A stretch of 64,000 nt of DNA from assembly GCA_964035545.1 (NCBI GenBank), contig OZ037768.1, positions 17,651,500-17,715,499 of the forward strand, written 5' to 3'. Within the stretch, counting starts at the first letter, position 1; each line of letters opens with the position of its first letter. The notes under the pieces were generated by a model that was not told where the DNA came from, made no database searches, and worked only from the letters and a program-made list of their open reading frames with translations. Positions 25,283 through 56,778 of this stretch are shown here, piece by piece. Both the position numbers and the translations under genes were made by a program. Source of the stretch: Bugula neritina (Eukaryota; Animalia; Bryozoa).

Positions 25283-26458
25283 ATGTTGGTTGGCTTTTTT
25301 GTAGATCGTAGAGCAAAGAGAATCGCAACTGATATCCAAGTAATGTTCCCTCAGTTCGATTTTGATACGATCCTTGCTGTTGTCAAAGCTGAAGTGACAA
25401 ATGAGGCTTCGGTTGCCCGACTGGTGGAACTGGATGACCAGCGTAACCGAGACATTGCAGAGCAGTTTGCCAAGAACTCCAAACGGCAAGAACAAATAAG
25501 GGAGGAAAACAAGCGACATTTATTGGCTAAATCTCATTCTAAATCTAGTTCTTTCAAAAGTAATGCTGAATCGGTCTCTCTCAATCAACCAGAACTAAAC
25601 TCTAATGTTGTGCAGAGTCAAAACCTAAACAACTCAAATTCGGATAGCAAGGACCCGGTGTCAAAAGAATCGGAAGTGAATCCGTGTAGCAAAGATGAAG
25701 GCCGAGTTATTTCTTTGCCCTCTTATTCTGATTTATCTAGCCCTGCTGTGGATCTGCTATTGCGTGGCTATGGGGGAAGAGAGAAGCATGCACCGGAGAA
25801 AAACACAGATTTTTCTCTACCATCTCATGTTGTAGAAGATACGCTAAAGAAAAATATTTCAGATTCGAAAATGTATCCTGAAACATCTGGTGGAGACTTG
25901 GCTGCAAAGAAAGAGGCGCGGCGAAAGGCAAGACAAGAGAGAAGAGAGCGTCAGCAGAAGCAGCGCCTGGAAGCTGCTAAACTGCAACAAGAAGTGGCAG
26001 TTGAGCGACGGCAACGAACTGCCCGAAATAAAAATGGCACCAGTATGACGACCCACTCTAGCAAGGAAAAGCCTTCCGAGTCAACAGCTATACTGCATAC
26101 ATTAGAGACATCTTCGGAATCTGGAAAACCTCAGGAGGAAAAGCGTACAATGCACGGTGCCTCTTCTGGATACGATACTGGTCCAGAAAGAAACCAAGAT
26201 GGTGTTGATAATCGTCCGAGAGAAGCTATGTCTAGCAATACTAAAAAAGGTGATCATGTGTCGAGTGGGCCACTTAAAGCTGAACGCAAGGGTGTGAAAT
26301 ATGCATGTGGAACTAAATACGATTCATCATCCAGCCATGCAGCAACCAAAAATAAGCCTAGTAAATACGAATCTAAAAAAAGCAAGCGCTACAACAGACG
26401 CAAGACTCTAAACTATGACCATTATTCTACTGACCAGCAAGACAGAACCTCTCTGTAG
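25283..26458 (+). CDS. Uncharacterised 391-aa protein: N-terminal CUE-like domain, coiled coils, low-complexity tail
   Basis: Long stop-free ORF in AT-rich DNA, preceded by a good acceptor (tttgcag|, 25266). IATDIQVMFPQFDFDTILAVVKAE has the MFP-x-D-x3-I CUE pattern; KKEARRKARQERRERQQKQRLE is a charged helix. Confidence 0.7.
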   Translation: MLVGFFVDRRAKRIATDIQVMFPQFDFDTILAVVKAEVTNEASVARLVELDDQRNRDIAEQFAKNSKRQEQIREENKRHLLAKSHSKSSSFKSNAESVSLNQPELNSNVVQSQNLNNSNSDSKDPVSKESEVNPCSKDEGRVISLPSYSDLSSPAVDLLLRGYGGREKHAPEKNTDFSLPSHVVEDTLKKNISDSKMYPETSGGDLAAKKEARRKARQERRERQQKQRLEAAKLQQEVAVERRQRTARNKNGTSMTTHSSKEKPSESTAILHTLETSSESGKPQEEKRTMHGASSGYDTGPERNQDGVDNRPREAMSSNTKKGDHVSSGPLKAERKGVKYACGTKYDSSSSHAATKNKPSKYESKKSKRYNRRKTLNYDHYSTDQQDRTSL

Positions 26459-31841: not shown

Positions 31842-34800
31842 TCAAGTTATACCTGGAGGGTTCTGATCGTTAAAGCTAAGAATAATTTTTTGTTTGGCCA
31901 CAGCCGTTTCCAGGTGTGTCAACAGTTGAGGAATTTCATTCAGCATTTCTTTACTGTTGAGCCTAGTGGAGGAGATCTACAAACAGGATGTAGCAGTAAA
32001 TAATGACACTATTTCCTGTTTAGCGGAGAGTTCACTATTTAGAAGATCAAAAACCAGTCAATTACAAAGCAGCAGTTTTATGCATGACTATTTCTACAGC
32101 ACAGGTTTCAGTAAAAATATCTTGGCCCAAACTCAAATTTCTACTGTCTTATGCAAGTTTACTCGAGTAATGCAATCTTACCATAAATGCTATAGAGAAA
32201 CAATATTTTAATTTATTCTTTGAATTACACAAAATACTCTATTTCAATAACTATAGACAACTATTAAATAAGCATAATAGGGTGGCAGTGAAAGGGCTAA
32301 GAACAACCTAACAAAACCCACCTCATGTGCGAGAGCTGCTTTGAATTGCTGGTGAATGTGAGAAATGGCTGCTGGATCTTTCAAGTCAGGCACATCTGAA
32401 AGCAATTTAAATTATATCATTTATATCTCAAAGCTCAAAGTATATCAGTAAAACTTCTGTGCAAAAATTTGCTGGTTTTTTAAATTCAAGTTTAATACTA
32501 AAAAGTTGTCCACTCTTGTAAGTGGTGTGTGTGTAATGAGATAACTTACTATCGACGGTAAGTGCCACGCCACATAAAATTGCTGTTTCATTGATACTAA
32601 ACCTAACAGCGTTTTGCCTCCTTGTATACTCATATAAATAAGTTACAAAATCTGCGGGGAGAATCTTCTCCATCCATTCTCTGGTGTAGACATATTCGTT
32701 GCAAAATGGTATGTAAGTCTGGCCGTTCTTGAACAACGGAGAGTTCCATATCTGCAGGTGATCATAACATAAACTTAAGTGAAGCGTGTAGAATACATGC
32801 AAACCAGATCTTCTACTATTCCTGTTAAATCATCCTCAAACCAAGAAATAAATCGCTAATTCAAACTTAGCCACGTATATAAGTAAATGATATAACAATT
32901 GAGCAATTCAATGAATATAAACATATTTAATTATATTACAAATCATATTATATTACATTATGTTACAAAGCATAAATAACTGCATCCCATGTATAGATCT
33001 CAGTGAATCAGTCAGGGAGTTAGTCAGTGAATCAGTCAGTCCACTGCTCAGTTCAACTGTAGGCTAATCATTCCATAGAAAAACACCAGATCTGGTCTCA
33101 GAAACTTACCAAAGAGGTAGAAAAAATAAGTTATTATTCAACTAGGAAAATAATACTTTTATTGTTGCCAATATTTGTGCTGACTAATCACAATTATTAT
33201 TTTCAACTGCCAGCAGAATAAAATGTATCAACATATTGAAAACATCATAACTGTCTGAAAGGTCACCAAAAGTTTTTAAAACAAAAGAAAATCTACAGCT
33301 GTACTGTAGCTATTTGAATATAAAAACTTATTTTCATCAAATAAATGTAAAAGTTGCCAGTTAATGAACTGGTGACTTAAATGTAAGGAACCAAAATTCT
33401 TGCAGTACCACATAAATATTTTCAGCAATAACACTACCTCTAGTATTAACTCTACTTTCAGTACTAACACTACCTCTAGTACTAACTCTACCTTCAGTAT
33501 TAACTCTACTTTCAGTACTAACTCTACCTTCAGTACTAACTATACCTTCAGTATTAACTCTACCTTCAGTATTAACTATACCTTCAGTATTAACTATACC
33601 TCCAGTATTAACTCTACCTTCAGTATTAACTCTACCTTCAGTACTAACTCTACCTTCAGTATTAACTATATCTCCAGTATTAACTCTACCTTCAGTATTA
33701 ACTCTACCTTCAGTACTAACTCTACCTTCAGTACTAATTCAACAATGAAGTAATGGAGAAACAGTCAAGTTAAAAGTAGCTCCACAACCTACCACAGACA
33801 AACTGAGATCAATACATAGGAAAACAGTGATGGATAACCAAGAACTGCAAAGTTCAACAAACCAGCAGAAACTTCAGTTAATAACTTACACAAGATACCT
33901 TGACTGCAAAACATTTGATAGCAAAAGAAAACAGATTAAAAATATTGATTTTCATAACAGAGTGCATCAGAGCATCTGTATGCTATGTAATCATCTAATG
34001 GGTGGTAAAACCATCAACTCCAATGCAGACATTCTTGGTTATTTTATAAGCTTACCAGCCATAGAGGTAAATAGGAATGTTGAATGAGAATTTTCGTATC
34101 TTCAGCGCTAACTTTATTCAGCAAAGGACATTTCAAACAAAATTCTATAACACAACGTCAAACAATTATTATACTGCAAACTTTATACGATTTATTGAGC
34201 ACAACCTTGGCATTACTATATTCCAGTTCTGAATGCATGCGTTAGTTTGATCCGAGAGTTGAAACAGAGAAAATAATTTTTCTCTGTAAGGTGTAATGTC
34301 AAGATAAAACCATGCATACAACTAAAACTAACTACGATAAGTTGCTCTGTTAAGGTATATAAGAGTCAAGGCAGCCCAACAACAAACTCAATTCCATTAT
34401 CAACTACAGCCGGTTAGACTGTTATAATGGTCAACTCTAAATATTGTTAAACTAATCGTTGGCACTAGAAAAAACCTCGATGCAATATTAGCCCTCAAGT
34501 CACCATTTATTTTCTCACTGGCGAAAAAAGTAACTCATGTTATATAAGCTATATTTCCCGATATACAGTTCCACCATATGAAGTATAACTTCCAGTGGGA
34601 AACTGTCAATGGTGAAAACCAACTGCAAGAGTTGTCTGCAACATCCAATATAACTACACTGAAAGGGACTGAGTGACTGTATATTTTAAACTACAAGCCT
34701 ATATACAATAGAGAGTATATACTATACACCACGAAAATATTGCTACTGTAACTGCAATAACTGCTTACTATTTAATAAAATGCATTCCGGTTAAACTAGA

Positions 34801-37800
34801 GTCAAGCCACAAAATTAAATTAAAGCCACACAATGGCCTTCAAACTTGAACTTGCTTGCTTTGCATTACCATATTTAAAGTGAAACGTGTGAACTATAGA
34901 TAAGAAGGTATTCGAACCACACCTGATATCTTTAGCTTATAAAACTGTTTTGAAAGAGTATAAAACTTGGCAGGTGCTTTTACTGAACCACAGTAGAGTT
35001 ACAATAGCTTGGTATGACAATCTGAAAGCACATAAATCTAGTTTAAAATCAGACTTTCAACACTTTTTGCTCGCAAACACTTACTAAGCATTAGGTCATT
35101 ATACACTCCTACTGACTCCATTAGGTACTTCCAAACAGTGGATAAGTTCTCTTGCCGAAGAGGTATCATTCTGTCAGTCTGCAATCAGTATAGAAGTCTG
35201 GTAAACTAGTGCAACAGCTTGCACTCAACATTATTTAGTTGTCTAATTGACTAGACTATAGAGAACATTATCAGTAAGCATTTTAGAAGTTTTCTACACA
35301 ACTAACAGTAAAGAAAGAAGCAATGGAGTCGCAGTGGATAAGCTTTGGTTTGCAACAGCACCAGTTAACCAGCACTTTGTACTTTTATCAGTTATTGAGC
35401 CTAAAAGTGAGTTTATACCTTCAAAATGTTCAATCAGAAATTCAATTTGACTGAGTTGCATGGCATTATAAAAGCCACTTGTCAAAATTTTTGACTTGCT
35501 ATAACTGGTCGATTTCAGAAGAACAATCAAAGGGAATGATAACTCCTTGTAGATATTGGTATTTCATTGTGATTTGACTAGATGACTCACAGATTCATTA
35601 GTTCAAGTAAAAGCTCCACAAGTAAAAGCGCCACAAGTAAAAGCTTCATGTTCACAATATCAAATAACAACACCGACTGCCTTTCTCAATGCCACTTTTG
35701 TAGTGTCACTTTACTAATTCATAATGTTTTCAAAGGGCATTAAATAGCAACTAAGAGGGTCCTATTTTACTATTAGAAAGTGAGCTTCCGCATCAAAATG
35801 ATTTCAACCATTTTCAGTAAAACTATAAGCGATATTAATTGAAACATAAACACAACATAAGATTGGAAAGGTGTTGGTGAGGTGAGCATGATAAGTGAAT
35901 TTGTCCTAAATCCGAACAGACGTAACCAATGGTTAACATAACCTGAAGAATTTCTATAGAATTACAATATTATTAATTTTATAGGGGGAAACACTGTGAT
36001 CAATTGAGACAACTGAGCGGAGGGTGAGGCTATGCAACCCTATTCACCGAACTTTGTACTCTTAATTTGTAAATTTTATTTCAACATTTGTCCAACCACC
36101 TTACCACTCTATAAGTTAATCTTACTTCAAGGCATCAGAAAGTTTCCTAGTTCCAGTAACAGGTGTAGGTTTTTCCAATTTTAAAACCTGACATCAGTCA
36201 CTGAGTTGATAAGATTTCACGAACAATACTGGTGTTGGACTCTTAGCCAATTTTCTTGGTGCCAACATAAATAATACATAACAAGATTGTTAAGAATCAG
36301 TCTAGTTGAAAAAGCTATAAAGCAATATTACGTATTTTCAACCACCATTTAATGCTACATTAATAATTTCCAGAGAAATTATACAAATTTTAGGGTGCAT
36401 TAGAACCAATACCCTCTGTGTTGTCAGCATAGTGTACAAGTTATAAGACCTACACTGCCCGTAGCTATCATTTCCTCCATGATATCCACTCCTCTCCTAA
36501 TATCACTTGTCACATCCCAGTAAACCTTTGCAACAGACTTGATGAGATTGTTCAGAGTTTGCTCAGAATTTCTAAGACTGGAGGGAGATGTGAACTCACT
36601 GCGAACATCATCAAATGAGCCATAATCAGAGTGGATGTCGTGCTACAAATATTCGTATTGCTGCAAATTGGAGATTTGTTTATGGCAAATTAATTTCATG
36701 AATTAATAGTCCTTCAACATTGCGGCATTCACAAGTTAAAGATTAGGATGTTAGAAAAATTAACTATGCTATCAAAAGATTTAAATTGTGAATAAAACAA
36801 GCAATATTCAATGTAAAGTTTTACTGTCTAATATCTACAATACATCTAAACATATCACACAGCATTAGGTATCCTGGTAAAACTGGCACAGGTAAAAATG
36901 ACACAAGTAATAATGGCACAAGTGGAAAAGTATGTAAAAATGGCACGTTTTCAATATTGGGGTTTAGGGTAAAGGGTTATGAATTTGGGGTTTAGGGTTT
37001 GAGTTTAGGTTTCGAGTGGGAGAGGTTTGGAAAAATTCAACATTAGTGTGCCGTATTTACCTACTTTTCCATTTGTGCCATTACTACCTGTGCCAATATT
37101 ACCTGTGCCACTTTTACCTAAACTGACAGCATTCACAAGTCAGTTGGGGGGTACAATAAGTATGCATACAAGTATGTGTGTATGCATGTATACTAGTAGA
37201 CGTACAAAATTGGGGCTGCATTGCTGTGGAGGAGGAATATCTTCATACAGAAGTTGGTTGGAGGAAGGAGTAGTATCTATAGAGTTCACATTCTGTATAT
37301 CCAGAAGCTGGGTGCTACTGCCATTCTGGGAGTTACACATTATTGCCTGACTGGTGCTGCTGTTGCATCTAGAGGCAGCAGTTACTGTAGGGGAATGACT
37401 ATGGAACTCAGAACTGTCTTTAGTATTGCTGCCGTATGACTGATAGGGTTGAACAGCTGGTGATTGATAAGTGTTGAGTGAGCTGAGGCACACATCGTGT
37501 CTATTGCCTGCTAACTTGTGCCTGTCAGAATATTTGGCACCATAATTCACTTTATGTACAGGATAGCGGTTAGATGAGTACGTGGGGTCACCGGGGTCAA
37601 CTGGCTGAAGAGGTGGGTGGTGTTTACTGCTAGCCATGGAATGCCAGTCACTGAAGCTGTGGTCAGCATAGCTAGACGTTAGAGGAGGCAAAGCTGGCAT
37701 CATGTTATGCAGTAAAGTACCACCTTCAGCTATTCTAGGCAGTATGGCCAGAGTAGGAGGAGCCATTTCTCTGGACTCATCCATTGCTATGACTTCGTCC

Positions 37801-40590
37801 AGTACCTGCCCCATTTCATAGTTATTCTGTTGAATGGAGGCCATGTTATATCCAGGATTGCAATGGTATGCTTCAGCCATGCGCCTCTCTCCACCCCCGT
37901 GTAGCACCTCCTGGAATTGCCCTGCACACATATGTTGAGTGAATCAAATGCTCTAGAGTCTAGATTATATCTATAATCTACAGATTTTACGACTAGTTAA
38001 TAATAAACAAGTCAGCAATTACTGGCAGCATTCTCAGCTTCAGTCTGAGAGGGGGAAATTCTCAACTAATTAACAACAGACAGCATTAGAACAGTTGGAA
38101 AGAAATGAAAAGCAGTATATTGTAAAAGTCATCAGATAATGGCCATTGATTGGTAACTAGAATATACATGAACTACACTAAAGTGAAAACAGGGAGTCAT
38201 ACAGTTGATTTCATTTTTAAAATAATTTTTCAATAAAATTATAAAGCGTGGATGCAAGTAGCCAACTAAAAACCCCTGCATTTAGTAACATAACAGCTAA
38301 ACGCCATTCACTTTGCTGCGAGCAACCTCAAGCAGCCCATGGCTTTCTACTATTATGGTATAAATCTTAAAGTAGTGACATACTTTGGGAGTTCCGGATA
38401 TTCTGGTGAACAGGGCTACAGTGACTGCCTGCACCGACTCTGTTGTTACAGGTCTTCATCAGTTTGAGTGGGGGAGGTCCATTCACCTCTTCATTCACTG
38501 CAGCACCACTATCTGTCTGTCTAGCCTCACTGCTGTTTTCTTCAAGAGCCTTTTGTCTTTGGACTTTCGGGATCCGTCCCATCTTGATAGCTAAGACAGG
38601 GCTGCACATTTTAGTGAATAAACAGTGAACGAAATATTTCTGAATTGAAGAGCAAATTTGAAGTAATTAAAAAAGGTTTTAACTCATGACATTAATTAGA
38701 AGAGTTTATTAAATGGAGTCCATTTGAGCTAACATGAAGTAGATTGGCTGACACTGGCTCAAGTAATGGCCAGTTGGTCATACACTAACATTAGTAGTGA
38801 ACTTCTCGAGGTGAAAGTAATGCTAGTAGACAGCCAACTATAATGAGTGACTTTCAGCAAGGTTGCCAGCCCATCAGACATTGTATAAATATAGTTAGGC
38901 CTATATTTATACAATGTAGGTCATTTCAACAACCTTATTTTTGGCATCAACAATACAACGTAACCGCAGCTTAGACTTTGACCTTAAATACTGGTTTCAT
39001 CTATCAGAACAATATGGCTATGATGTACTCAAAGCTTGTAACCATAGACTGCAAGTAAGCTCTTAGTCTGGAATGTTTACTGAGTGATAGCCTTCAGGTA
39101 AACTATTTATCACCTCACCCTCTCAAGTTCAACGTGAAGCATCACATTAATAACAATGTGACAAGATTAGTATTTCAGTGCTTTGCTCATTCACGATAGT
39201 GTAGTAAAACTTATCATCTGTGAACTTAATGGGGAGTGCAAGCTTAAGGACTGGTCAACGCTCTGATCAGTTATGGTTTCATACAGTTATTTCTACAACT
39301 TGAGTTGCTTATCACCAATATTAGTATCCATGCCAGGATATTAAATTTACACCACAATGCGATGGCTAAATCATGAAATAGTTGCTTCATTATTATTAAA
39401 TTTTCCAACAACTTTCAAAAGAGCAGTTCTCTATTGATTCAGTTTGAGAAGCCAGGTGGTATGACATTGCTGACGGATAAAGCCGCTGCCTTTGAAAGGT
39501 ACACAAATCTGGTATAAGACTTCATGAGCTATTAGAAAAAATCATTACTAGTCATTATTGGCTTCGAGTAGTTCATAATGATAGGCAAAACCACCTTACG
39601 AAGTATAAATTACAAACTTCCAAGAAAACACATTCTTATTGCTATCATACTGCATGATAACCATAAAGTGAATAAAATTGGCACGTGATAATGAGCTAAG
39701 TTGAGATTATTATGGAAGTTGAGTATTCAACTTCTTCCCCCCTCCCCCATTAGCTAGCAATAATAAGTATAGAACTCAAGCCACCACAACTGAATACAAA
39801 AGAGACAGTGAACTCTGAAAACCATAAATACTCATTCAGGCAGAACCAAGCTAGAGGAGAAATATATTTCACTGATGGGAAGCAAATCTGATGACAAGCA
39901 ATGGAATAACTTCAGCAGTTAGTGAAGGATGAGGTGGATGAGCTGTTGCCAGTATAACATGATGGTAGTAGCACTGTTGAGAGTACTTATTTAGTTTGAG
40001 TAGTAGCTGAGAGCTAAGGCTAGCTGGTAATTCTAAACTAGTTCCACTTACCTTAATGAACAAAGTACCAGCATAAGTAATGGCAAGACACAAAACCAAA
40101 CATATAACAGAAGTGGGAGAACCACAGAATTAAAACTTTATTTCAACAGAAAACCTGTCGATAACTTTACTCAGTTTCACATTGAACTTCCGCTCAGTTC
40201 AAGAGAGTAGAGATAACAGTACTAAGAAGCCAGACAGAAATAGCTAGCTTACCATCCATAGACATGCCAAGTTCTAGACATCTGTTGAACCTACACAGCT
40301 TGCACTTTATTCTGTTCTCCGGGTCTATAGAACACTTATCGTTGTGTAAGCATTTGTATTTGCCAAACTTGGGAAGACTTCGTTTGAAAAAGCCCTAAAC
40401 AGAACAAATACAAAATCCGGATACAAATCATTTTAACAGGTGGAAGCAGACTTCCCAGATGCTGCTATAAAACTAATTCAGCCTTCACCTTGCAACCTTC
40501 ACATGTATTGGCCCCATAATGCTTTCCTGTAGCCTGGGCACCACAGACACGGCATTTTCCAAATGGAAAGGGTATAGCTCCCTGGGGCAT
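31842..40590 (-). CDS. Nuclear receptor, NR1 subfamily (Rev-erb/E75/PPAR-related), ~649 aa, no AF-2 helix
   Basis: Minus-strand exons 40590-40489, 40394-40253, 38590-38384, 37921-37206, 36642-36454, 35178-35085, 34144-34056, 32751-32550, 32395-32322, 31976-31842 (1950 nt). DBD [28 protein letters not shown]...CLHNDKC...CKLCRFNRCLELGM; CTE AIKMGRIPK; degenerate LBD signature KFCLKCPLLNKVSAEDTKILI. The true start may lie further upstream. Confidence 0.9.
33430..33738. repeat. 18-bp minisatellite (CAGTATTAACTCTACCTT)n, ~17 units
   Basis: Direct tandem repeats in a nuclear-receptor intron. Confidence 0.95.
36876..37118. mobile_element. Small foldback/MITE with repeated TGGCACA(G/A)GTAA motifs and a TTTAGGG-like core
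   Basis: Left GGTAAAACTGGCACAGGTAAAAATG... is mirrored by ...TTACCTGTGCCACTTTTACC; centre GGGTTTAGGGT/GGGGTTTAGGGTTTGAGTTTAGG. Confidence 0.75.
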
Positions 40591-46033: not shown

Positions 46034-47962
46034 GCGGGATAGCGCAGCCGTTAAATCGGCTCACCACAAAGGGAGTCCAATGGCAGTGGACCTCAGTCGA
46101 ACAGCAGGCATTCGACCACCTCAAGGGTTGCTTGCTCCGAGCGCCCGTCTGGGCCTACCCCGATCCCGCACCAGAATACATCCTGGACACTGATGCCAGT
46201 GACCACAATGTGGGTGCCGCACTGTCGCAGGTCCAGGAGGGTCGGGAAGTAGTCGTTGCCTACTACAGCAAAGCTCTCTCCGCCGCCGAGAAGAATTACT
46301 GCACTACTAGGTGAAGCACTTCCAGCCTTATGTTTACGGCAGAATGTTCCGGCTGCGAACAAACCATGCCTCATTGATTTGGTTGTGTAAGAGAGCTGAA
46401 CTCTCCAGCCAGGTTGCACGGTGGCTTGAAATCCTGACCGAGTTCTCCTACCGAATCGAACATCGATCCGGGAAGAAACACGGCAATGCCAGAGCGGCAG
46501 CGCTCTTCTGCCCTCGGCACCAACACACTCTCATCTCAGCCAGAGAAGTTACCTGCCATCTTACTCCGACGGTTGTGCTGGACAGCAGAAATCACAGAAC
46601 ACAAGATCTCCGAGACAAGGGGGGACCCGGAGAACACGTGTAGATTGTGCCAGCAGGTCTTCACGACTCCAAGGCGGCTAAAAGTACACATGCCACAACA
46701 TTTTGCTATTGTCAACTACCATTGAGATTATATCTTAAGGCATCAACAGACAATGAAATGCTACCAAGGCCACCTCTTTGATGTTGACGAGCCAACTTTC
46801 CACAGACTCTTCAATGTTATCAAGCCCTTGTTACGAGACCCATGTAAGCTGGCTAGTCTGTCTCGCGGATTCCCGACCCCTCGCCCGATTACCTGAAGGA
46901 CCGTTACCAAGGCCCCCTCGATCGAAGAAGGAGGAGAAAGCTACCCCTGTCTCCCTGTCTCTTCAGTGCCCTAGGATAACGCTACAGAGACTAGATATGA
47001 ATGTTATCCCATCAGAATCTGGTGATTTCATCCAGCACTCCCCCCACATGCGGCTCCAGGTTGTCCGAACAATCTCACAAGAAGAAGAGGAGAACTTCTC
47101 CATCCCGGCCCCTACATCCATCTTTGCCCCCGCCACCTCAATCCGGGAGGTGGAATAGAGGATTTCCAAGCTGGAGTCCCAGCTATTCCAACTCACACCA
47201 CAGGTCTTGGCTGCCACCAATGAGTTAAACCTCTTGAAACACTCGTTGCATAAGTTGAAGAAGAGGGCTAAAAGCTTTTGAGGCCACCTGCCACTAGCTC
47301 CGGGTATGCTTATATTTCTAGTGTATTCCAATTCTTTTCGAATTCTCATATCTTGTTCTTTCCTGATCTTTTCGGTAGCAGTTGCTTGCTGCTTGTTACA
47401 AGTTCCATTTCGTTGGCTACAGTTGTGAGTTGTGACTGTGATACAAATATCTCAAATCAGATTCTTTCCAATATATTTTATAATATAGTTTTTTATAATA
47501 ATGTAATTTTCTTTTTATAATACTGGTTTTTATAGTTTTTTTATATTACTGATACTTTCCTACACTTTTTGAATGTATCATAAAGTGGGTTTTTTGCTGG
47601 AGGGGGTATAATGGTTGGGGGAAGTATACTCCTCAGTACTCCCTGCTAAACATTGACTATATATAATATTATGGTGCAACTAACGTCAAGGACCACAACT
47701 CCACAAGCCACGCCGTGATTCCATGCGGCGCCCTGCTACTCTTTACAGTGACACCGCCGAAACTTTATCCCATCCAATCAGGAGCGACTCTCTGTATATA
47801 AACGATACCTTCCGGCTGTCAACTCTATGTAGCATTTTTAGGGATTATATTCTTTTCTATTTTATGCTTACACCTGATTTTATCGCGCGTAATTAACTAA
47901 CAACACAGTTCTCTTGTTAATAAAAAACGATCAACTGGTTCGGTTCTTCACATAACCTCACA
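46034..47962 (+). mobile_element. Decayed, 5'-truncated Ty3/Gypsy element: connection/RNase H fragment, pseudogenised ORF3, PPT, probable 3' LTR (~47607-47962)
   Basis: GIAQPLNRLT...YILDTDASD...NYCTTR / KHFQPY...ARWLEIL...KHGNA is homologous to pol of the neighbouring intact element; integrase deleted; ORF3 homolog with in-frame stops; TTTTGCTGGAGGGGG PPT motif shared with the intact element; TATATAAA and AATAAA in the putative LTR. The right boundary is approximate. Confidence 0.85.
46490..47281 (+). pseudogene. Disrupted zinc-finger/coiled-coil ORF3 of the decayed Gypsy element
   Basis: CRLCQQVFTTPRRLKVHMPQH...RHQQTMKCYQGHLFDVDEPTFHRLFNVIKPLLRDPCKLASLSRGF ... IREVE*RISKLESQLFQLTPQVLAATNELNLLKHSLHKLKKR aligns colinearly with ORF 49499-50311. 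Confidence 0.8.
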
Positions 47963-48904
47963 GTGGATATGCAGTAATTACTCGCACGCAATAACACCTT
48001 AACTAGTAGTGCACAAAACTACAACAATACCATCATGATGATGACCATACTCTCTCCTATCCTCATAATAATAATAATAACGTTAACTGTTGAAGTTAGA
48101 GTTGGTGTTATTGTGATGACCATGATGATAATTCTAACGACATTAAGATAAAAATAACAGAATCGTAATTATAGTAACTGTAAGTATAGCGAATAACGTA
48201 GGACTAGGAGCTTACCGTGCCATTAATTAAAAAGCCTAAAATTTATCGGGTTTAACCAGCATAAGGCATAAGCCTAAGGACAAGGTAATGCCTTTTCTAC
48301 TATTACTAGTATTAGTAATAGTAATAGTAGCCGCGAGTGACTTTGAGCTTGCACGTTTGACTTGCGCTTGGCTTTTTACTTCAAATTTTAATTTTACCCT
48401 AGCCTTCAAGTTCAAATTGAAATTTATTCTTTAACATTTAGTTTTACACTGCGTACATTTACAACTACAAGTTGAAGTACATTCCATCAGCATTGCCATT
48501 AGTAATAGTAGTTTTGACAACTGATTTGTTTCAATAGGACTTTTACTTACCTAATCATCTTTGAGTGCACTATTCAATTTCATGAAAAGTAGTACGATTA
48601 TAAATTGAAATATTGTGCCTTGTGGAAAATGCTCATGCTCATGCTCTTGCAGAATCAAAGTGAAAGTATATACTAACTTAAAATGAAACCACACATGAAA
48701 GCCGCCGAGCTTCTTTATATTAAGTTAGGATAACTCTGAAAGTTTTAGTTTAGCTGAAATATCTTAGCAAGTTTCAACACATTGAAATATAAAAATGTTT
48801 TGGATGACAAGCGAAGCACAAATATTTGTGGACAGGACAACTCCATAAAGGCCCTAAATAACTGTCAATAGCTATTACTATAATTATAATAATTTCTGTG
48901 CGTG

Positions 48905-49211
48905 TGTTATAATTTTCAGATTTAGGGTTGATGTGCTATCCAGAGAGTCTATTTATCTACTATAGAACTGCACCAGGCTAAGTCGAGTGAACGAGTATAT
49001 TTTATACACAACTAGACATTATAAAAACACGATACATTATTTCCAAACAAGTTACACATCTAATCTATTTCACACTCTAGCTTCGACTGAGTTAGCAGCG
49101 GGAAACTACAATTGCTGCTAACTATCAACTACGCTAATTGGCTATCCATTGTTCCGGGTCAATTACGCGACCCTACATGTCGTGCTGCTGGTAGTTCCAC
49201 GAACCACCACA
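48905..49211 (-). repeat. 3' LTR (307 bp)
   Basis: Identical by eye to 55841-56147; preceded on the minus strand by the purine-rich GGTGGGGGCGG (49212-49222). Confidence 0.97.
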
Positions 49212-49498
49212 CCGCCCCCACCAGCAGAAAGCCATCTTTCTGATATATATATATAAAAAAAACATTCAATAGTAATTGCGTACATCAGTGGACAAAATAA
49301 TACATAATATACAGGAAGAGACACAATAATAGGCAGAGTCATTTAACGATCCGTTGCATACAATTGGCCAGCTGTAGATAGACAAGGAATACTAGCTAGC
49401 TGTGGTATTAGACAAGGAATAACCTGTCTAGCAGTTAAGCATTTGCACGACCTTGGCTTCTCCCAAGAGGCGGAGTTGGAGTACTCAGGGTAGTCTAA

Positions 49499-50311
49499 CT
49501 AGAGTCCTTGTTGGGCACGCCGGTGCTTGGCTTGGCATGTACGCAGTTTCCGTTTCATACGGCATACGGATCCCTTTAGCTGGAAGAGTCCGGTGGTAGT
49601 GTTAAGTAGATCTGGTGCCAGCTGGGTGAACTCTTCTTGTAATCGTAGGAGGCGTTCTTCTACGGTAGCCAGGCGTACTGGGTCTGGGGACGGTGTCCGT
49701 CTGCGGCGCAAGGGTGGACTGGGGGACCTGGTTCGTCTCTTCGCCGGTGTAGGGGAGATCTCTCCTTCTTCTGGGTATGTAATTTCCTCGGGGGTGTATG
49801 TAATTTGAGGACGGTCAGACACCAACGGGGATTGTTGGCGGGCGTTGTCTAACACACGTTGGAACCCCGAGGACAGAACGGCTAACAACATGGCCTTCTT
49901 CACCAGAGGTCGTATAAGTGTGAGGAACTCCGGGTATAGCTTAGCGTCGACCACGTAGTTTTCTCCAGGGAAACAGCCCGCCGCTCTGTGTCTGGTGACG
50001 GGGTAGGGATACACATCATTGTACCCGCAGGGGCAGAATGTTAGTAGGAGATGAGCATTGACGTGTAGTTTAAGGGAGCGGTGAGAGGCGCAATCTTCAC
50101 CACAGATCTGGCATCTCGTCCGTCCTCTGGACCCCCAGGCTGTTTCTATTTCTTCTTCTGTTTGTGGAGACACCCACCGCCAACGGCGGCGTAGTGGCTC
50201 AGGCCGGTTACCACTAGCGTACTCCTCTGGATACGGAGCGGGAAGTGTTCTATCCCGTACCCTGGTTGTAGCGGGTCGAGTGTAATCCCACGATCTGTTG
50301 TCGTAAGACAT
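49499..50311 (-). CDS. Retrotransposon ORF3: C2H2 zinc finger + basic Ser-Pro linker + coiled coil (270 aa), not env
   Basis: Intact ATG-initiated ORF 24 nt after the pol stop; CQICGEDCASHRSLKLHVNAH finger; FCPCG...H...C cluster; RRTRSPSPPLRRRRTPSP; heptad-rich C-terminus; homolog present in the decayed element. Confidence 0.85.
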   Translation of the reverse strand: MSYDNRSWDYTRPATTRVRDRTLPAPYPEEYASGNRPEPLRRRWRWVSPQTEEEIETAWGSRGRTRCQICGEDCASHRSLKLHVNAHLLLTFCPCGYNDVYPYPVTRHRAAGCFPGENYVVDAKLYPEFLTLIRPLVKKAMLLAVLSSGFQRVLDNARQQSPLVSDRPQITYTPEEITYPEEGEISPTPAKRRTRSPSPPLRRRRTPSPDPVRLATVEERLLRLQEEFTQLAPDLLNTTTGLFQLKGSVCRMKRKLRTCQAKHRRAQQGL

Positions 50312-50335: not shown

Positions 50336-53300
50336 CTACTGCTTAGAAACACGTCTACTCCTGACTGCATCAGCGTATGAAAAGATCGAGCAACGTGGTT
50401 GGGGTGCGTGATTAAGACTTTGTGCACCCGGCGGATGAATTTTGTTTCTATTTCCGCCGATGCAAAAGTTGATATTTCCGTGGTGTTGACAACTCCCACA
50501 TTTGCTCGATTCTTTTCTCGTACGGTTTTCCCCTAGACTTTCATGCGTGCCGCTTTTAACGCAGTCACATACGAAGTCCTTCAAGTATGCGGGGGGTTGC
50601 CTCGTACGCTGTCCCCTTTCTAGGGGGGGTGACACGCTTGCCGGTTCGTTAGTAGGGGCCTCTAATGGCGTCTCTACTTCACCGTCAGCCGTCACCTCTT
50701 CTTGTTCTCCGGATGGAGCCCCTCCCTCCGTGGGGGTTTGCACTTCCGGAACCGGCTCGGTTTCTGGAAGTGATGGAATTAGACTTGGCGGTGGTGGACA
50801 CGCTTCTGTTGGCAAAAGCTGCCGCTCCTCTCTCACCAAGTTTTCTTCCCGCGGTATGACCACTTCGTATTCAGGTCCATGCCGCCGTCGCCCGCGCGTT
50901 GTTGTCTGCCTCCTGGGCTCTAACAACGGGGGGGCTTCTCCCACTCCGCCGGGGCTAGCCCAATACGGTTTCAAGCAAGACTCATTCTGGATAGATACCT
51001 GTCCTGAGCGCTCAATCTTGTACGTATGATTGGGCATAGCCTCGACAACCACGTAGGGGCCTACGAACTTAGGCTTCAGCTTATCAGCCTGTCCGCGGCG
51101 CCTACGGTAATTGACCATCCACACCTTATCTCCCCTTTGATAGAGGGGTGGTTCATCGGAATCTTCGTGCCGCACCTTCCACTGCTGTTGGCGCAGTATC
51201 TCGTGTGCGGCCTTCATCCGTTCCACTAGTTCACTGGCATACTCGTGGACTGAGTTATCTTGCTCTGGAACGTGATAGGTGAGATGGTCAGGGACACGAG
51301 TCTCCCTCCCGAGCATCAAGAGGTTTGGGGTCTCACCAGTACTGGTGTGTGGGGTGCTACGGTATGCACGCATGACTTGCGGCAACACCGTATCCCATTC
51401 CTCTTGACCTCGTCCAAGGAGGAGACTCCGGAGCGCATCACCTAGCATCCGGTTGTTGCGCTCCACCACCCCGTTACCTTGAGGGTGGTAGGGGGTGGTC
51501 CTGCTCTGATTTACTCCCCAGAGGTGGCAAAGGTCGCTCATCAGTTGAGACTGGAATTGAGCGCCTTGATCAGAGTGTATCTGTTCGGGAAGCCCAAAAT
51601 AACAAAATACATGTTGGTCTAGCGCCCTGGCCACTGTTGGGGCTGATGCATCTGGGATAGCCAGAGCGTCCGCCCACCTAGTAAAGTGGTCGGTTAGTAC
51701 TAGTATCCAATTATTGCCTCTGGGGGTCAGGGGCATGGGTCCGACCAGGTCTACAGCGACTACTTGCCAGGGCCTACCAGCATATAGCCTCCGCCGTCCT
51801 GCTTCACCAGGGGGGCGGCTATGCTTACTGGCCTGGCAGATCTCACACTGTTTGACTCTGAGCCGGACGTCACGCTCCATCTGCGGCCAATACCACCGGA
51901 GTCGTAATTTGGATATCACTCTCTTGACCCCTGCGTGGGCCTGTTTGTGAGTATCCCAAATCAACTCACGGCGGATGGCCGTGGGGCAGACTACCCTCTT
52001 CCTTTCCGGGTGTCTGCCGCTGGCAGCTAGAGAGATGGTTAGCAACCCATCCTGCCCGATCCGCAGCGAGTCCCAACGCTGACAGTATAGCCGGAACTCG
52101 GCGCATCCCTGTCGTATGCGTTCCTCGCTGGGTCGTCGCCCTTCCCTTTTGGCCCGGTATATGTCTGCCACGACTCCAGGCAGCTCTTCTTGGAGCTTCT
52201 TCAGCTCTCGAACATTACCGGCCAGTACGGGGTTGGCGCGGAGGTTTTGTACATCCTCCGGGGACTCATCAACTCTTTGCCTGAGTTGACCTTGATCCCA
52301 ATCAAACGGTGCTCCGTGATGAGCCAGCGTCTCCAACTCGCATCGTGGGGGACCTCCATCCCTCCTCTCGATGTTGAGACACTGTTTGCAACCTCCGTCA
52401 GGTCGGCGACTCAACCCATCCGCATTGCTGTGTCTCTTGCCCGGTCGGTGTTCGATCCGGTACGAGAATTCAGCTAGGATTTCGAGCCACCGGGCGACCT
52501 GACTAGAGGGCTCTGCTCTCCTGCACAACCAGATCAGCGAGGCATGATCCGTACGCAGCCGGAACTTCCTGCCATATAGGTATGGTCTGAAGTGCTTCAC
52601 TGACTTGATTACTGCCAGCAGCTCCTTGCGGGTAGTGCAGTAATTTTGTTCAGCGGGTGAGAGAGACTTGCTGTAGTAGGCTACTACTACCTCTCGGCCT
52701 TCCTGCACTTGTGACAGCACAGCGCCAACATTCTGGTCACTGGCGTCCGTGTCAAGGATGTACTCCAGAGTGGGGTCTGGGTAGGCCAAGATGGGCGCCG
52801 TTAGTAGGCAGCCCTTGAGGCGGTCGAACGCTCCTTGTTCGACTGGAGTCCACTGCCACGTCACTCCCTTTGCGGTGAGCCGGTTTAACGGCTGGGCTAT
52901 GCCCGCAAAGTCTGGTATGTATTGCCTGTAATACCCTACCAGCCCCAAGAAAGCCCGGAGTCCGGTCAAGTCTTGGGGGGTGACCCAGTCTTCTACTGCC
53001 CGTACCTTTTCGGGATCCGTTGCCACGCCGTTTCGACCGACAACGTGCCCCAGGTACTTGACCTCCGGCTGCAATAGAGCGCACTTGGAAGGTTTGAGCT
53101 TAAGACCGGCACCTCGGAGTCTCTCGAAAACCTCCTGTAGACGACTGACATGTGTCTTGAAGTCTGGAGAGATTACGATGACATCATCGAGGTAGACCAG
53201 CAGTGTCTTCCAATGGAGTCCGCTAAGGACTTGTTCCATCAGCCTCTGGAAGGTGGCTGGGGCGGAGGTTAACCCGAAGGGCAGCACCTTCCACTTCCAC

Positions 53301-54907
53301 AAACCGTCCCGTGTGATAAACGCCGCTTTCTCCTGGGCGTCGGGACTCAGAGGAACTTGCCAATAGCCGCTTAGCAAGTCTAACGTACTGAAGTACTTGC
53401 TGCCGGCTAGGGCGTCCAATGACTCGTCAATACGAGGTAGAGGGTAGGCGTCCTGTATGGTTACGCTATTGAGTTTGCGGTAGTCCACACAGAACCGCCA
53501 ACTGCCGTCTTTCTTCCGGACCAGTACGACTGGCGAGCTCCACGCACTATGGGCGGGCTCTATCAGTCCCCGGTCCAGAAGATCCCGTACTTGTCGGCTA
53601 ACCTCCTTCTCTTTCTCCGGCCCCAACCTGCGGGTGGGCTGCCGGACAGGGACTGTCCCTGCAGTCAGCGGTATTTCGTGTCTGACAATTCCAGTCAGTC
53701 CCACGTCATGCTCCCCGCTGCTGAACACATCACCGTAGTCGCGTAGTAACTTTGCCATAGCTTGGCGTTCCCGGTTACTCGCGCAGCCGCCACTGGCTGT
53801 TTCATATAACTCCCGGAGATGTGTTGGGACTGCCCCTCGTCCCTGAATAGGGTGTCGAGGGAGTGCCTCTGTCGCATCACCCAGCGACGGGCCTACGTCT
53901 CCCTCCTGAACAGAGTGAAAACGGCCCAGCATCGACCCAGCCGGGAGCTTGATAGGCTCGGTAAAGGGGTTGACGCACTGCACTAAGATCTCCCCTTGCT
54001 CAGTTAGCTGATTCAGACTGCTGGCAAGTTGGATCTTTTCGTGCGCGCCTTCGACCACCCCGAGTCCAGAGATCCGGCTACTATTCACCCTGCAGTGAAT
54101 GGTAGCCCGGGAGCGGCCTGGTATGGTACGGTTGCGTACCACTTGCACACCTCCCACTAAAGGGCGGCCGAACTTGTCGACGCAGGCGAGTTCCCGCCCG
54201 GACATCATCATTGCAGATCTGCTAAAATCTATGTGACATCCGTGCCGTTTAAGGAACGGCATCCCGAGGATAGCATCCTCCTTGAGCTGACTGACGATGA
54301 ACGTCTCTTGGATCGTTTGATCGCGGACTCGTCCCGTCAGCTCAATTATACCATAGAAGGGAAGGCACGACCCGTCAGCTAGGGTGCCGTATTCCCCTTC
54401 GTATGCTTCCATCTCGCCCCTGACCCTAGCGCTGAGGGTGTCGAAGAGTTGGCGGCTTAAGAGGTTTGTGGTACAGCCCGAATCAATGAGAAAAGTAACA
54501 GCTTTGCCTTCCAGTTTACCGGGCAAGAAATAGCTGTTCCCATGGGGCTGCACCTGAACTCTCCCTTCAGGCCTTACTCTCGCAGGGAGTACCTCCCTCG
54601 CTTTGGGTCGCGAAGGAGGTCTCTTGGGGCGGTGATAGGTAGGCCTCGGGGGTGCCGAGGCTAGATTCTCAGCTACCTTTGTGTGCTCCCATCCAGATTC
54701 TTGGACTTGTAGCCCTGTGAATCTGTTGTGAAGGGGCATAGAAAAGGCAGCCGCGGGGCGAAGCCCCTTGCTGGTCCGCCGTGGCTGTTGCCACTGTTGG
54801 TTGCCAGTACGTGGTACCCGTCTGGGTGACCTGCGTTTCTTCTTCCCTAGAGGTTTCATCGTCGGCCCGCGGAAGGTGGGAACATCTGCGGGCCGCGGTA
54901 GTTTAAC
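50336..54907 (-). CDS. pol: Gypsy Pol polyprotein (protease, RT, RNase H, integrase)
   Basis: FLIDSG protease; PFGL and YLDD RT; LDTDAS/TDH RNase H; HKQAH...CEIC zinc motif; VAVD/HSDQG/VVER DDE integrase; GPY motif; no internal stops. The start is taken at the frameshift site. Confidence 0.97.
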   Translation of the reverse strand, partial: VKLPRPADVPTFRGPTMKPLGKKKRRSPRRVPRTGNQQWQQPRRTSKGLRPAAAFSMPLHNRFTGLQVQESGWEHTKVAENLASAPPRPTYHRPKRPPSRPKAREVLPARVRPEGRVQVQPHGNSYFLPGKLEGKAVTFLIDSGCTTNLLSRQLFDTLSARVRGEMEAYEGEYGTLADGSCLPFYGIIELTGRVRDQTIQETFIVSQLKEDAILGMPFLKRHGCHIDFSRSAMMMSGRELACVDKFGRPLVGGVQVVRNRTIPGRSRATIHCRVNSSRISGLGVVEGAHEKIQLASSLNQLTEQGEILVQCVNPFTEPIKLPAGSMLGRFHSVQEGDVGPSLGDATEALPRHPIQGRGAVPTHLRELYETASGGCASNRERQAMAKLLRDYGDVFSSGEHDVGLTGIVRHEIPLTAGTVPVRQPTRRLGPEKEKEVSRQVRDLLDRGLIEPAHSAWSSPVVLVRKKDGSWRFCVDYRKLNSVTIQDAYPLPRIDESLDALAGSKYFSTLDLLSGYWQVPLSPDAQEKAAFITRDGLWKWKVLPFGLTSAPATFQRLMEQVLSGLHWKTLLVYLDDVIVISPDFKTHVSRLQEVFERLRGAGLKLKPSKCALLQPEVKYLGHVVGRNGVATDPEKVRAVEDWVTPQDLTGLRAFLGLVGYYRQYIPDFAGIAQPLNRLTAKGVTWQWTPVEQGAFDRLKGCLLTAPILAYPDPTLEYILDTDASDQNVGAVLSQVQEGREVVVAYYSKSLSPAEQNYCTTRKELLAVIKSVKHFRPYLYGRKFRLRTDHASLIWLCRRAEPSSQVARWLEILAEFSYRIEHRPGKRHSNADGLSRRPDGGCKQCLNIERRDGGPPRCELETLAHHGAPFDWDQGQLRQRVDESPEDVQNLRANPVLAGNVRELKKLQEELPGVVADIYRAKREGRRPSEERIRQGCAEFRLYCQRWDSLRIGQDGLLTISLAASGRHPERKRVVCPTAIRRELIWDTHKQAHAGVKRVISKLRLRWYWPQMERDVRLRVKQCEICQASKHSRPPGEAGRRRLYAGRPWQVVAVDLVGPMPLTPRGNNWILVLTDHFTRWADALAIPDASAPTVARALDQHVFCYFGLPEQIHSDQGAQFQSQLMSDLCHLWGVNQSRTTPYHPQGNGVVERNNRMLGDALRSLLLGRGQEEWDTVLPQVMRAYRSTPHTSTGETPNLLMLGRETRVPDHLTYHVPEQDNSVHEYASELVERMKAAHEILRQQQWKVRHEDSDEPPLYQRGDKVWMVNYRRRRGQADKLKPKFVGPYVVVEAMPNHTYKIERSGQVSIQNESCLKPYWASPGGVGEAPPLLEPRRQTTTRGRRRHGPEYEVVIPREENLVREERQLLPTEACPPPPSLIPSLPETEPVPEVQTPTEGGAPSGEQEEVTADGEVETPLEAPTNEPASVSPPLERGQRTRQPPAYLKDFVCDCVKSGTHESLGENRTRKESSKCGSCQHHGNINFCIGGNRNKIHPPGAQSLNHAPQPRCSIFSYADAVRSRRVSKQ

Positions 54908-55809
54908 CCCTGATTTAGGAAGGGACAATATCGGCGGAAATGTCCTTGATTTCCGCACTCCCAGCAAAAACTGACTGTTTCTCCCTGTGGCGGCGCCGAT
55001 GGCCGCATGGGCTCAGGGGCGGTACTCACTGGGTTTTGTGGTGTCAGTGTTGCTATCAGCTTGGCTAGCATGTCCGTCAATTGAGTGACTTTTGATGCCG
55101 TCGCCAACTGGGACACGGCAGCCGCGGCGGGGGTTTCCTCCCCTTGTCCCGCGGCCGTGTCCGCGCGGTCTATCTCCACTTGGCGGGAGCTTCCACGACT
55201 TTTATGCATTTGATTAGCTAGGAGGTAAGCTTCCCCCTCAGTCAGAGCATCTTCAACGGTGGTGACTCCCCTAGCTAGAAACTGGTGGTGGAGACCCAGA
55301 TCGTCGACAGATGCTATGAAAGCGTCGAGGGTGTACCTCTCGCGGTTGACTGGGGGCAAGTCGCTGTACGCGATCTGCGCCAGCTTCATGACCGCGGCGG
55401 CATGCTCCCGCAGCGGGGTGCGGGGATCACGCCGCAACCTCTGCAATCGGGCCCTGGCATCTGTAGCAGAAAGGCCAAAGCGGGCCCGCAGAGAAGCAAA
55501 GATATTATCAATGTCTACGCCCAGCCCATAGGGCTTGGCTTTGTCCATCAATGCCATTCTAAGCTTCAGCAGGGCCACCCTAGGGGGCCACTGAGCGACG
55601 TCCATTACGTCGCTAAACTCTTGGATAAATTGTTCCACCTCCTCTTCACCCGTGAAGGTGGGCGCCTTTAACCTGTAGCGGTCTTCAGCTAGTTCTCGCG
55701 GAACCCTTCGCTCTTCTACTACATGGTTAACAGGCATTGTCTCTACAGCATTGTCTCTACGCTCACCTTCGATTGCCGGTGGTTGAGTTCCAGCATTTTC
55801 AGTCTCCAT
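54856..55809 (-). CDS. gag: Gag (317 aa) with CCHC zinc knuckle
   Basis: Follows the PBS; KAPTFTG capsid-like start; CWECGNQGHFRRYC knuckle. Confidence 0.93.
   Translation of the reverse strand: METENAGTQPPAIEGERRDNAVETMPVNHVVEERRVPRELAEDRYRLKAPTFTGEEEVEQFIQEFSDVMDVAQWPPRVALLKLRMALMDKAKPYGLGVDIDNIFASLRARFGLSATDARARLQRLRRDPRTPLREHAAAVMKLAQIAYSDLPPVNRERYTLDAFIASVDDLGLHHQFLARGVTTVEDALTEGEAYLLANQMHKSRGSSRQVEIDRADTAAGQGEETPAAAAVSQLATASKVTQLTDMLAKLIATLTPQNPVSTAPEPMRPSAPPQGETVSFCWECGNQGHFRRYCPFLNQGLNYRGPQMFPPSAGRR
54864..54907 (-). promoter_or_regulatory. Putative -1 ribosomal frameshift signal (G UUA AAC + stem-loop)
   Basis: Gag frame GGG TTA AAC, with pol in the -1 frame; 5 nt later CGGCCCGC...GCGGGCCG forms an 8-bp GC stem. 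Confidence 0.7.
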
Positions 55810-55821
55810 CTTGGATGCACT

Positions 55822-55839
55822 ATCCCACCGCTGCCACCA
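55822..55839 (-). promoter_or_regulatory. Primer-binding site complementary to the tRNA-Leu 3' end
   Basis: Minus strand TGGTGGCAGCGGTGGGAT, 1 nt inside the 5' LTR; complement of ATCCCACCGCTGCCA-CCA, the recalled 3' end of metazoan tRNA-Leu(AAG). Confidence 0.85.
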
Positions 55840-55840
55840 C

Positions 55841-56147
55841 TGTTATAATTTTCAGATTTAGGGTTGATGTGCTATCCAGAGAGTCTATTTATCTACTATA
55901 GAACTGCACCAGGCTAAGTCGAGTGAACGAGTATATTTTATACACAACTAGACATTATAAAAACACGATACATTATTTCCAAACAAGTTACACATCTAAT
56001 CTATTTCACACTCTAGCTTCGACTGAGTTAGCAGCGGGAAACTACAATTGCTGCTAACTATCAACTACGCTAATTGGCTATCCATTGTTCCGGGTCAATT
56101 ACGCGACCCTACATGTCGTGCTGCTGGTAGTTCCACGAACCACCACA
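55841..56147 (-). repeat. 5' LTR (307 bp)
   Basis: TG...CA, adjacent to the PBS; minus-strand GTATAAAA TATA-like box. Confidence 0.97.
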
Positions 56148-56778
56148 CGTGCACTTGAATGATGTTCAAAATTAATCATTTTGATGCCCAGATTAATCAA
56201 ATTTTATGTACACAATCATGCTAATATATTTTTCTATAATGTTTTTCGAAACTTTATAATATCCTTATAATTGACATATGCTTTATATGTTTGGTTATTA
56301 ATCATATTAGTAGTTTAAATAAACAGTTTTGACAGGCAAAAGTTTTACTGCGTTGCATTATTTGCTATTCCTCTTTTAGTAGATATTTTGAATTTTATTA
56401 CCAGGTTATAGCTAGGTCGAAAATTCTTGTTGTTTTAATACATTTAAAATAATATGATATATAGCATGAGGGATTATAAACTGTGAATTGTAATGTATAT
56501 TATCTATAGTTATGCTATAAATGAAAATGCAATAACTGGTTCAGAGGAATTGCAAACTCCAAATTATAATTTCTGGGAATTGGCTGAAAAATGTTAAACT
56601 CGAACAAGAGACAGCATGTTACAAGTTTAGCAGCACCAAATTTTAACTTTAAAACCGTGTCCAATTTAATGACAAGAATGATTGCTTTAGAGTTTGAACC
56701 AATAAAAAATACCACCAAGCAATATATGGTTTCCTTAAAATCCTATTTTTGTTTTACATTTCACTCATGCACACACGG

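Follow-up and report, generated by a model that had tools for sequence, protein, structure and literature searches.

The expression of simple LTR retrotransposons is commonly viewed as dependent on host factors. Tat, Rev, Tax, Rex and Tas are small regulators that are made from spliced mRNAs and act on the expression of their own element. In animals, Cer1, a Ty3/Gypsy element of C. elegans, encodes CERV, a nuclear accessory protein that is not an envelope protein and is produced from a spliced mRNA; the available part of its description reports no obvious homologues outside nematodes (PMC10309623). Apart from CERV, the literature searched yielded no characterised nuclear accessory protein of animal Gypsy elements. 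Some of the extra open reading frames (ORFs) of plant LTR retrotransposons encode nuclear proteins and have been proposed to resemble retroviral accessory genes, as far as the available part of the source goes (PMC7264820). Other extra ORFs or clades have been reported, none of them with a C2H2 third gene in the portions of main text available (PMC8220671, PMC12440569, PMC6338049). Non-env third ORFs are already known from animal Gypsy elements (CERV and the ORF3s of bdelloid rotifers).

The window, meaning the whole 64-kb stretch of DNA that was analysed, contains on its minus strand a complete Gypsy element made up of LTRs, primer-binding site (PBS), gag, pol, ORF3 and polypurine tract (PPT) (Table 1). 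Its third ORF is genuine and represents an accessory gene found across a clade, with a double-finger domain not previously described. The family was not found in the full-text literature; supplements, most subscription papers, Repbase, Dfam and GyDB lie outside that scope, so a prior annotation is possible. The order protease, reverse transcriptase, RNase H, integrase, together with TG...CA LTRs, a target-site duplication, a PBS and a PPT, places the element among the Ty3/Gypsy LTR retrotransposons. The LTRs (307 bp each) are 100% identical, so the insertion is very recent. Its PBS, which we take to be tRNA-Leu-like, recurs as an identical 18-mer at three other loci (L001, L003 and L004), and its gag shares 25-35% identity with those of L001, L003, L005 and L011. 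Behind the candidate -1 frameshift heptamer lies a GC-rich stem-loop with a stability of -22 kcal/mol in 60 nt (54907-54850, minus strand); the same heptamer pattern was searched for in L001, L003 and L011 and was not found.

Table 1. Features of the intact element, its ORF3 and the decayed neighbouring element (positions in the window)
Feature	Position	Strand	Remarks
5' LTR	55841..56147	-	307 bp; identical to 3' LTR
3' LTR	48905..49211	-	identical to 5' LTR
Target-site duplication	56148-56151 and 48901-48904		CGTG
Primer-binding site	55822..55839	-	18 nt
gag	54856..55809	-	C-terminal CCHC knuckle; zf-CCHC E 0.15, weak
Candidate -1 frameshift heptamer	54901..54907	-	G_TTA_AAC in gag frame; GC-rich stem after it
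pol frame	50336..55012	-	1558 codons stop to stop; protease, RT, RNase H, integrase, SH3
ORF3	49499..50311	-	270 aa; ATG at 50311, stop ends 49499
Inferred first coding exon of ORF3	50287..50311	-	ATG, 8 codons plus one base
Double zinc-finger domain	49832..50206	-	residues 36-160
Variable linker	49676..49831	-	residues 161-212; Arg/Ser-Pro-rich in the subfamily of the window copy only; low pLDDT
Predicted coiled coil and basic tail	49508..49675	-	residues 213-268, C-terminal
Polypurine tract	49212..49225	-	
RNase H fragment, decayed element	46034..46489	+	71-82% amino acid identity to intact pol; frameshifted
ORF3 homologue, decayed element	46490..47281	+	fused directly to RNase H fragment; stops, frame changes
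PPT-like tract and probable 3' LTR, decayed element	47590..47908	+	by eye

The window also holds a MITE-like inverted repeat (19124-19696; 205-nt arms, 98% complementary, 163 nt apart), two open frames of 400 and 267 codons that match nothing in Pfam (25256-26458, plus strand; 37140-37943, minus strand) and two tandem arrays with 15-nt and 18-nt units (1373-1612 and 33362-33809).

ORF3 starts 25 nt past the pol stop and is followed by the PPT and the 3' LTR; the plus strand opposite it is closed, with no open frame. An earlier note on this DNA had described an intact ORF of 270 residues in the env slot, bearing a C2H2 finger, a second Cys/His cluster (FCPCG...RH...C), a helical block, an Arg/Ser-Pro stretch and a heptad helix, and lacking a signal peptide or transmembrane segment. 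The ORF and all of its listed parts were recovered. By simple hydropathy the N-terminus is hydrophilic and the best 19-residue Kyte-Doolittle mean is 1.5, in a segment that coincides with the modelled core helices, in agreement with the absence of both membrane signals. No likeness to F-type or gB-type fusion proteins appeared among the Pfam or Foldseek matches listed, and the ORF3 product does not appear to be an envelope protein. A single metatranscriptome contig, of depth 2.6, spans 49920-50138 and differs at 5 of 219 letters; it is uninformative on level, strand and splicing. In run X1, ORF3 depth is similar to gag depth, contig depth not being the same as copy number.

The first finger (ligands C67, C70, H83 and H87) has the classical C2H2 spacing C-x2-C-x12-H-x3-H, with a predicted helix at residues 77-88; the motif is kept in 64 of 74 aligned rows, although its Pfam C2H2 score of 13.2 bits is below the cut-off of 25.2. 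The second reads CxC-x12-H-x4-C (C93, C95, H108 and C113). The pair is not a Kruppel-type array: there is no TGEKP linker, the fingers are joined by five hydrophobic residues that form a strand, and the second finger is not C2H2. Additional domain core residues are W46, I55, F92, V121, D122 and P135. The earlier note had called for structure modelling and comparison. For the monomer, this gave a compact double-finger domain and a long C-terminal helix, with only generic zinc-finger matches. In the full-length model, residues ~40-160 have pLDDT >90 and residues 211-268 form a single helix, whose heptad register extends over six repeats (V217, L221, L224, F228, L231, L235, T238, L242, L245, V249, M252, L256). 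The domain alone was modelled with pLDDT 94.7 and pTM 0.86, and is predicted to fold as a single compact unit in which the two fingers are accompanied by three short strands and by flanking helices.

Comparisons of this model returned little. Foldseek gave no match at E 0.001 or better against PDB and BFVD; a wider structure search with the whole model retrieved generic long helices, and with the domain a best Z of 3.7. Such results from a predicted structure would not amount to proof of a new fold. Residues ~61-115 superpose only weakly (all Z <4) on DNA-bound tandem C2H2 pairs, for instance Kaiso (5vmu; Z 3.7, rmsd 3.0 over 57 residues) and SALL4 (7y3k; Z 3.5, rmsd 3.0 over 51). In a profile search against PDB sequences, finger 1 was the only part with a match, and Pfam gave only sub-threshold C2H2 matches and no enzymatic or known silencing-related domain. 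In the ESM Atlas the whole protein scored <0.9 and the domain 0.95-0.96 to unnamed clusters; DUF5810 and zf-C2H2_CASZ1, at 0.93 on few shared features, are leads only.

The family to which ORF3 belongs is large. A word-based search among 2195 candidates yielded 59 proteins at 46-98% identity to ORF3, and a full HMMER scan 104 family representatives; ORF3-based locus scans of metagenome and viral contigs gave no match. One relative, from a separate source, is 98% identical (P0004), and the named relatives are bryozoan (P0177 of Bugula neritina, 57%, and Watersipora subatra), which makes a bryozoan host likely. Across the 74 aligned rows, C93 is invariant, C67, C70, H83, H87, C95 and H108 are kept in 69-73 and C113 in 66, and the full motif C-x2-C-x10-13-H-x3-H-x5-C-x-C-x12-H-x2-9-C/H is present in 57. 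This conservation identifies the second Cys/His cluster as a second finger with the canonical 12-residue spacing. Conservation differs by region, with identities to the window copy of 57% for the domain and 76% for the coil, against 27% for the linker, over 33 rows (which exclude the window copy and its two closest relatives), the high values being inflated because the relatives were found via conserved words. The linker holds 9 Lys and Arg residues in the window copy and its two closest relatives and 1-6 in the other 33 rows, so that in this alignment the Arg/Ser-Pro character appears private to one subfamily. The conserved blocks proposed by the earlier note accordingly stand in part: the two zinc-finger motifs and the predicted coiled coil are supported, and the basic Ser-Pro linker is not a defining block.

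Other properties recur across the family. A basic cluster lies behind the domain in 24/31, 2/4, 7/8 and 5/7 members of four subfamilies, and all four have basic residues at +2 and +5 of the finger-1 helix. Net acidity characterises the region N-terminal to the domain in 22 of 30 proteins and the region C-terminal to it in 14 of 78, and acidic-hydrophobic 30-mers occur in 8/30 and 4/78, respectively; the N-terminal parts of machine-called proteins may contain intron or non-coding sequence. Acidic N-terminal part, double finger, basic linker and coiled coil follow one another as in a transcription activator. Among the functions considered, first place goes to transactivation of the element itself by a dimeric nuclear protein that would bind DNA through the double finger and raise LTR transcription, with a probability of roughly 0.4. 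The weak superposition on DNA-bound C2H2 pairs, the basic +2 and +5 positions, the acidic N-terminal parts, the basic clusters and the heptad helix all speak for it. Against it, the window copy has an N-terminus of only 35 residues that is not acidic. Moreover, finger 1 carries L, V or I at +6, and the finger-2 helix of the subfamily starts YPYP; neither these features nor the hydrophobic finger linker are typical of base-reading fingers. In the one element pair compared, the LTRs share no DNA similarity though the finger-helix residues are shared, which is unlike what sequence-specific co-evolution predicts.

The same non-canonical recognition helices would suit a protein that binds or titrates a host repressor or chromatin complex, and not the nucleic acid of the element, in order to escape silencing. 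C2HC-type fingers often bind proteins, which counts in the same direction. As noted above, no enzymatic or known silencing-related domain was found, and nothing in the searches pointed to a partner; such a host-directed role is unlikely.

Codon changes between related copies suggest that ORF3 has been under constraint. Between L010 and L011, ORF3 shows 8 nonsynonymous and 16 synonymous changes in 245 codons (integrase 10:11), and between L010 and L008 8:7 in 246 (integrase 4:0), the two pairs being non-independent and outside the subfamily of the window copy. Neutral decay would give ~3:1 by rule of thumb. A count of 9:10 for L001/L002 spans a repeat and was set aside. The dN/dS comparison that the earlier note proposed thus shows an excess of silent change over the neutral expectation in related ORF3s, in another subfamily than that of the window copy. 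This excess, together with the region-specific conservation, weighs against the view that ORF3 is a passenger, whether as a host zinc-finger exon captured recently or as an ORF that has no function.

A second copy of the gene lies in the same window. The decayed element, oppositely oriented and tail to tail with the intact one at a distance of 1 kb, lacks the whole stretch that separates RNase H from ORF3. A domain HMM run over six frames of the window found two sites only, ORF3 (1e-47) and 46549-46878 (1e-30). Against a 2.1-kb subject, ORF3 residues 37-150 align to the decayed copy at 28% (E 2e-11) and residues 217-258 at 33%. The earlier note had reported colinear counterparts of every block, with the FCPCG residues deleted; its quoted alignments are right for the domain and the coil, the counterpart of the Arg-rich Ser-Pro segment is weak, and a gap of about six codons does cover the CxCG motif. 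The decayed copy is 46-58% identical to its eight best matches and 30% to ORF3 and belongs to a different subfamily, and its candidate 3' LTR has no significant DNA match to the intact LTR. An element-borne family, region-specific conservation and this decayed homologue uphold the earlier proposal of a heritable lineage gene, as opposed to a chance ORF.

The link between ORF3 and its pol clade was assessed on loci chosen by integrase alone (89 pattern matches, 29 confirmed) and then scanned for the ORF3 domain. Nineteen loci have integrases at least 50% identical, of which 10 have 1009 or fewer bases downstream and are uninformative, none with the domain. Among the nine with at least 1250 bases downstream, eight carry the domain on the same strand, ~0.7-1.1 kb downstream, and these collapse to five lineages. 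Ten further loci have integrases at 33-42%, and the domain is present in none of the five with at least 1400 bases downstream. The co-occurrence with one RT clade that the earlier note had proposed checking is borne out at the level of integrase (8/9 against 0/5). The integrase tree separates the domain-bearing group from the distant one by a branch with full support, a split expected from kinship alone. L014 has an acidic ORF behind pol and no domain before the contig end, and was counted neither way. In the ninth locus, L003, gag-pol is flanked by two 728-bp repeats and no ORF3 follows pol, so ORF3 is not needed in cis. In its segment 75-8113 a domain-bearing ORF lies ahead of the first repeat, and the second repeat follows pol directly, with no PPT; a tandem, a deletion variant and an assembly artefact are candidate readings. 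ORF3 can be described as an accessory gene that one Gypsy clade has conserved, and the proposal of a third gene that is heritable, carried by the element, distinct from env and under selection is supported.

A more distant Gypsy clade was also seen to carry a different third ORF of ~330 residues (L018:5417-6418 and L019:3534-4526, also L020 and L021). It has one C2H2-like motif and an Arg/Ser-rich region, and it matches neither Pfam nor the ORF3-domain HMM.

Within the ORF3 clade the domain takes several forms. It is a free ORF in the window, L005, L006, L008, L010 and L011, and is broken in L012. In L001/L002, P0204, P0205 and P0206 it is in frame with Pol, behind integrase-SH3; the reverse transcriptases of P0204 and P0206 are 72-79% identical to that of the window element, and the integrases of P0204-P0206 64-72%. 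The fused forms carry a low-complexity linker of 300-700 residues, with acidic-hydrophobic stretches in P0204-P0206 that resemble the N-termini of free ORF3s. Fusion to Pol raises the prospect that the domain is a partner of integrase and, like chromodomains at the integrase C-terminus, ties the integration complex to a host protein or to chromatin, and the compact modelled fold with its strand-forming linker might serve as a protein-binding module. Against this role, the free forms just listed are separate from Pol, and P0157/P0191 combine a Gypsy protease and the ORF3 domain in one long ORF that has no reverse transcriptase and no integrase, possibly a non-autonomous lineage. The long low-complexity linkers mean that fusion may be mere stop loss, and a role as integrase partner is considered improbable, ranking below the host-directed role. 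Integrase-based scans of viral contigs were empty.

The domain is present outside elements as well. One or two copies occur in named bryozoan genes (P0116, P0193, P0187/P0068 and P0194); P0116 of Watersipora and P0193 of Bugula have similar N-terminal regions by eye and look like host orthologues. By sequence, these genes look like cases of domestication or like donors, and the domain tree, a quick version with 118 columns, 123 different rows and long-branch joins, gives no transfer direction. Host-like genes with the domain (P0116, P0193, P0187) add to the case for a host-directed role, and the existence of named bryozoan genes is what the passenger view has in its favour. However, the domain is spread across the integrase clade at 50-72% identity, both free and fused, which largely refutes the recently captured host exon that the earlier note had named as an alternative. 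The passenger view, as "recent" or "non-functional", is largely refuted and very improbable; an ancient capture is possible.

A further line of evidence concerns splicing. In run X1, whose type (DNA or RNA) is unrecorded, loose contig ends fall at 50287 from both sides. Two contigs match the first 25 coding bases and continue with GTGAGT on the strand of the element, and one other enters the remaining gene through a pyrimidine run and CAG, donor and acceptor thus lying on separate contigs. In the window copy the two sides (50287/50286) are joined with no spare base. Translation of the sequence on the acceptor side gives the N-terminus of P0004, and without splicing the ATG frame is closed by a stop seven codons inside the insert. 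A readable DYT-like N-terminal motif occurs in 16 of 53 close homologues examined, and in 14 of these S or L precedes the same D/G, as expected from a phase-1 YAG acceptor. The window copy and P0023 lack such an acceptor-type codon, and both look spliced. Sister copies therefore apparently have a GT-AG intron after codon 8, at a fixed site, and the simplest reading of these sequences is that the intron is ancestral to the subfamily and was lost exactly in the window copy through reverse transcription of spliced RNA. The same splice-signal pattern was not evident ahead of ORF3 in L005, L006, L008, L010, L011 and L012; in L010 and L011, ORF3 has an ATG of its own. In the window copy, the ORF3 ATG is also preceded, at a distance of one base, by a pyrimidine-rich stretch that ends in CAG (50351-50312, minus strand), possibly a second acceptor for a subgenomic mRNA.

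The intron brings in a function in RNA export, by which a protein made from spliced mRNA would bind unspliced element RNA and oligomerise on it for nuclear exit, as Rev does and with the precedent of CERV in the available part of its description (PMC10309623). Since most relatives keep the intron (14 of 16 readable rows), intron-bearing RNA must be exported and copied, and the early stop in the unspliced reading of ORF3 is consistent with a product of spliced mRNA. The linkers of the window copy and L006 are Arg- and Ser/Pro-rich. Furthermore, the sense-strand RNA of the element is strongly structured, with z below -2 in 34 of 143 windows (30 shuffles per window); the most stable stretches (z -3.8 to -5.8, minus strand) form a cluster at 54847-54578 and include 53597-53478, 54347-54228 and 51997-51878. 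These stretches could be packaging, frameshift or export signals, and service in frameshifting or packaging would remove them as support for export. The Arg/Ser-Pro linker, moreover, is unconserved, the window copy and P0023 show that spliced RNA is also copied, and acidic N-termini fit activation better. Elements with a spliced env manage export without a Rev-like protein. Taken together, an export function seems rather unlikely, although it is the main rival to transactivation and ranks above an integrase-bound or host-directed one.

Transactivation remains the preferred reading. The protein would be made from a separate spliced mRNA, be carried into the nucleus by its basic clusters, dimerise, bind proviral DNA and recruit host co-activators, the acidic, hydrophobic N-terminal region of many relatives perhaps acting as activation domain; the window copy would descend from genomic RNA spliced before reverse transcription. 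In the wider sense of a regulator of the element's own expression, through DNA or RNA binding, the assignment is quite probable. At its broadest, and offered as somewhat less than an even bet, a broad marine-invertebrate Gypsy clade would consist of "complex" retroelements in the sense of HIV and HTLV, with a regulator of their own that is spliced and dimeric and has a double-finger fold not described before, switched between free and Pol-fused forms, its intron lost through reverse transcription of spliced RNA and its domain exchanged with bryozoan host genes. A young intact element, alleles with and without the intron, and free and Pol-fused forms make the origin of retroviral-style self-regulation outside Retroviridae testable. 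They also expose a zinc-finger domain outside Pfam coverage that occurs in host-like bryozoan genes.

Known systems share some traits with ORF3 and differ from it in others. Kaiso/ZBTB33, SALL4 and ZBTB7A superpose over ~50 residues (Z 3.1-3.7) and have in common with ORF3 the classical spacing of finger 1. Tandem C2H2 pairs differ from it in the second finger, CxC-x12-H-x4-C in ORF3, and in the short hydrophobic linker, and the ORF3 fingers are embedded in a larger domain of helices and strands without a match. With Tat, Rev, Tax, Rex and Tas the relation is one of analogy only, no sequence or fold match of this type being found in BFVD or PDB. The errantivirus env is likewise a third ORF of metazoan Ty3/gypsy elements, also in Bryozoa, but encodes F-type or gB-type glycoproteins, in gag-env-pol order in Bryozoa, and the terms zinc finger and C2H2 are absent from the available portion of the main text (PMC13524379). 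Bdelloid rotifer ORF3s are non-canonical genes in the env slot, as ORF3 is; they are env-like, esterase or exonuclease, and the main text, where available, contains no zinc or finger term (PMC5408684). Grande gene23 and the extra ORFs of Retand lie between pol and the 3' LTR like ORF3, whereas the plant nuclear proteins discussed in the available part of that source are antisense, and a zinc finger or intron goes unmentioned there (PMC7264820). CERV resembles ORF3 in its Cys-rich finger, leucine-zipper-like helix and basic signal and is predicted to multimerise; it differs in its 517 residues, exons shared with gag, C4-type loop and G-protein-like domain, according to the available part of its description (PMC10309623). 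ORF3, with 270 residues, a place behind pol, and C2H2 and C2HC fingers, is set apart from CERV by that published description. By analogy, CERV may be regarded as the closest functional precedent for ORF3, built on another architecture.
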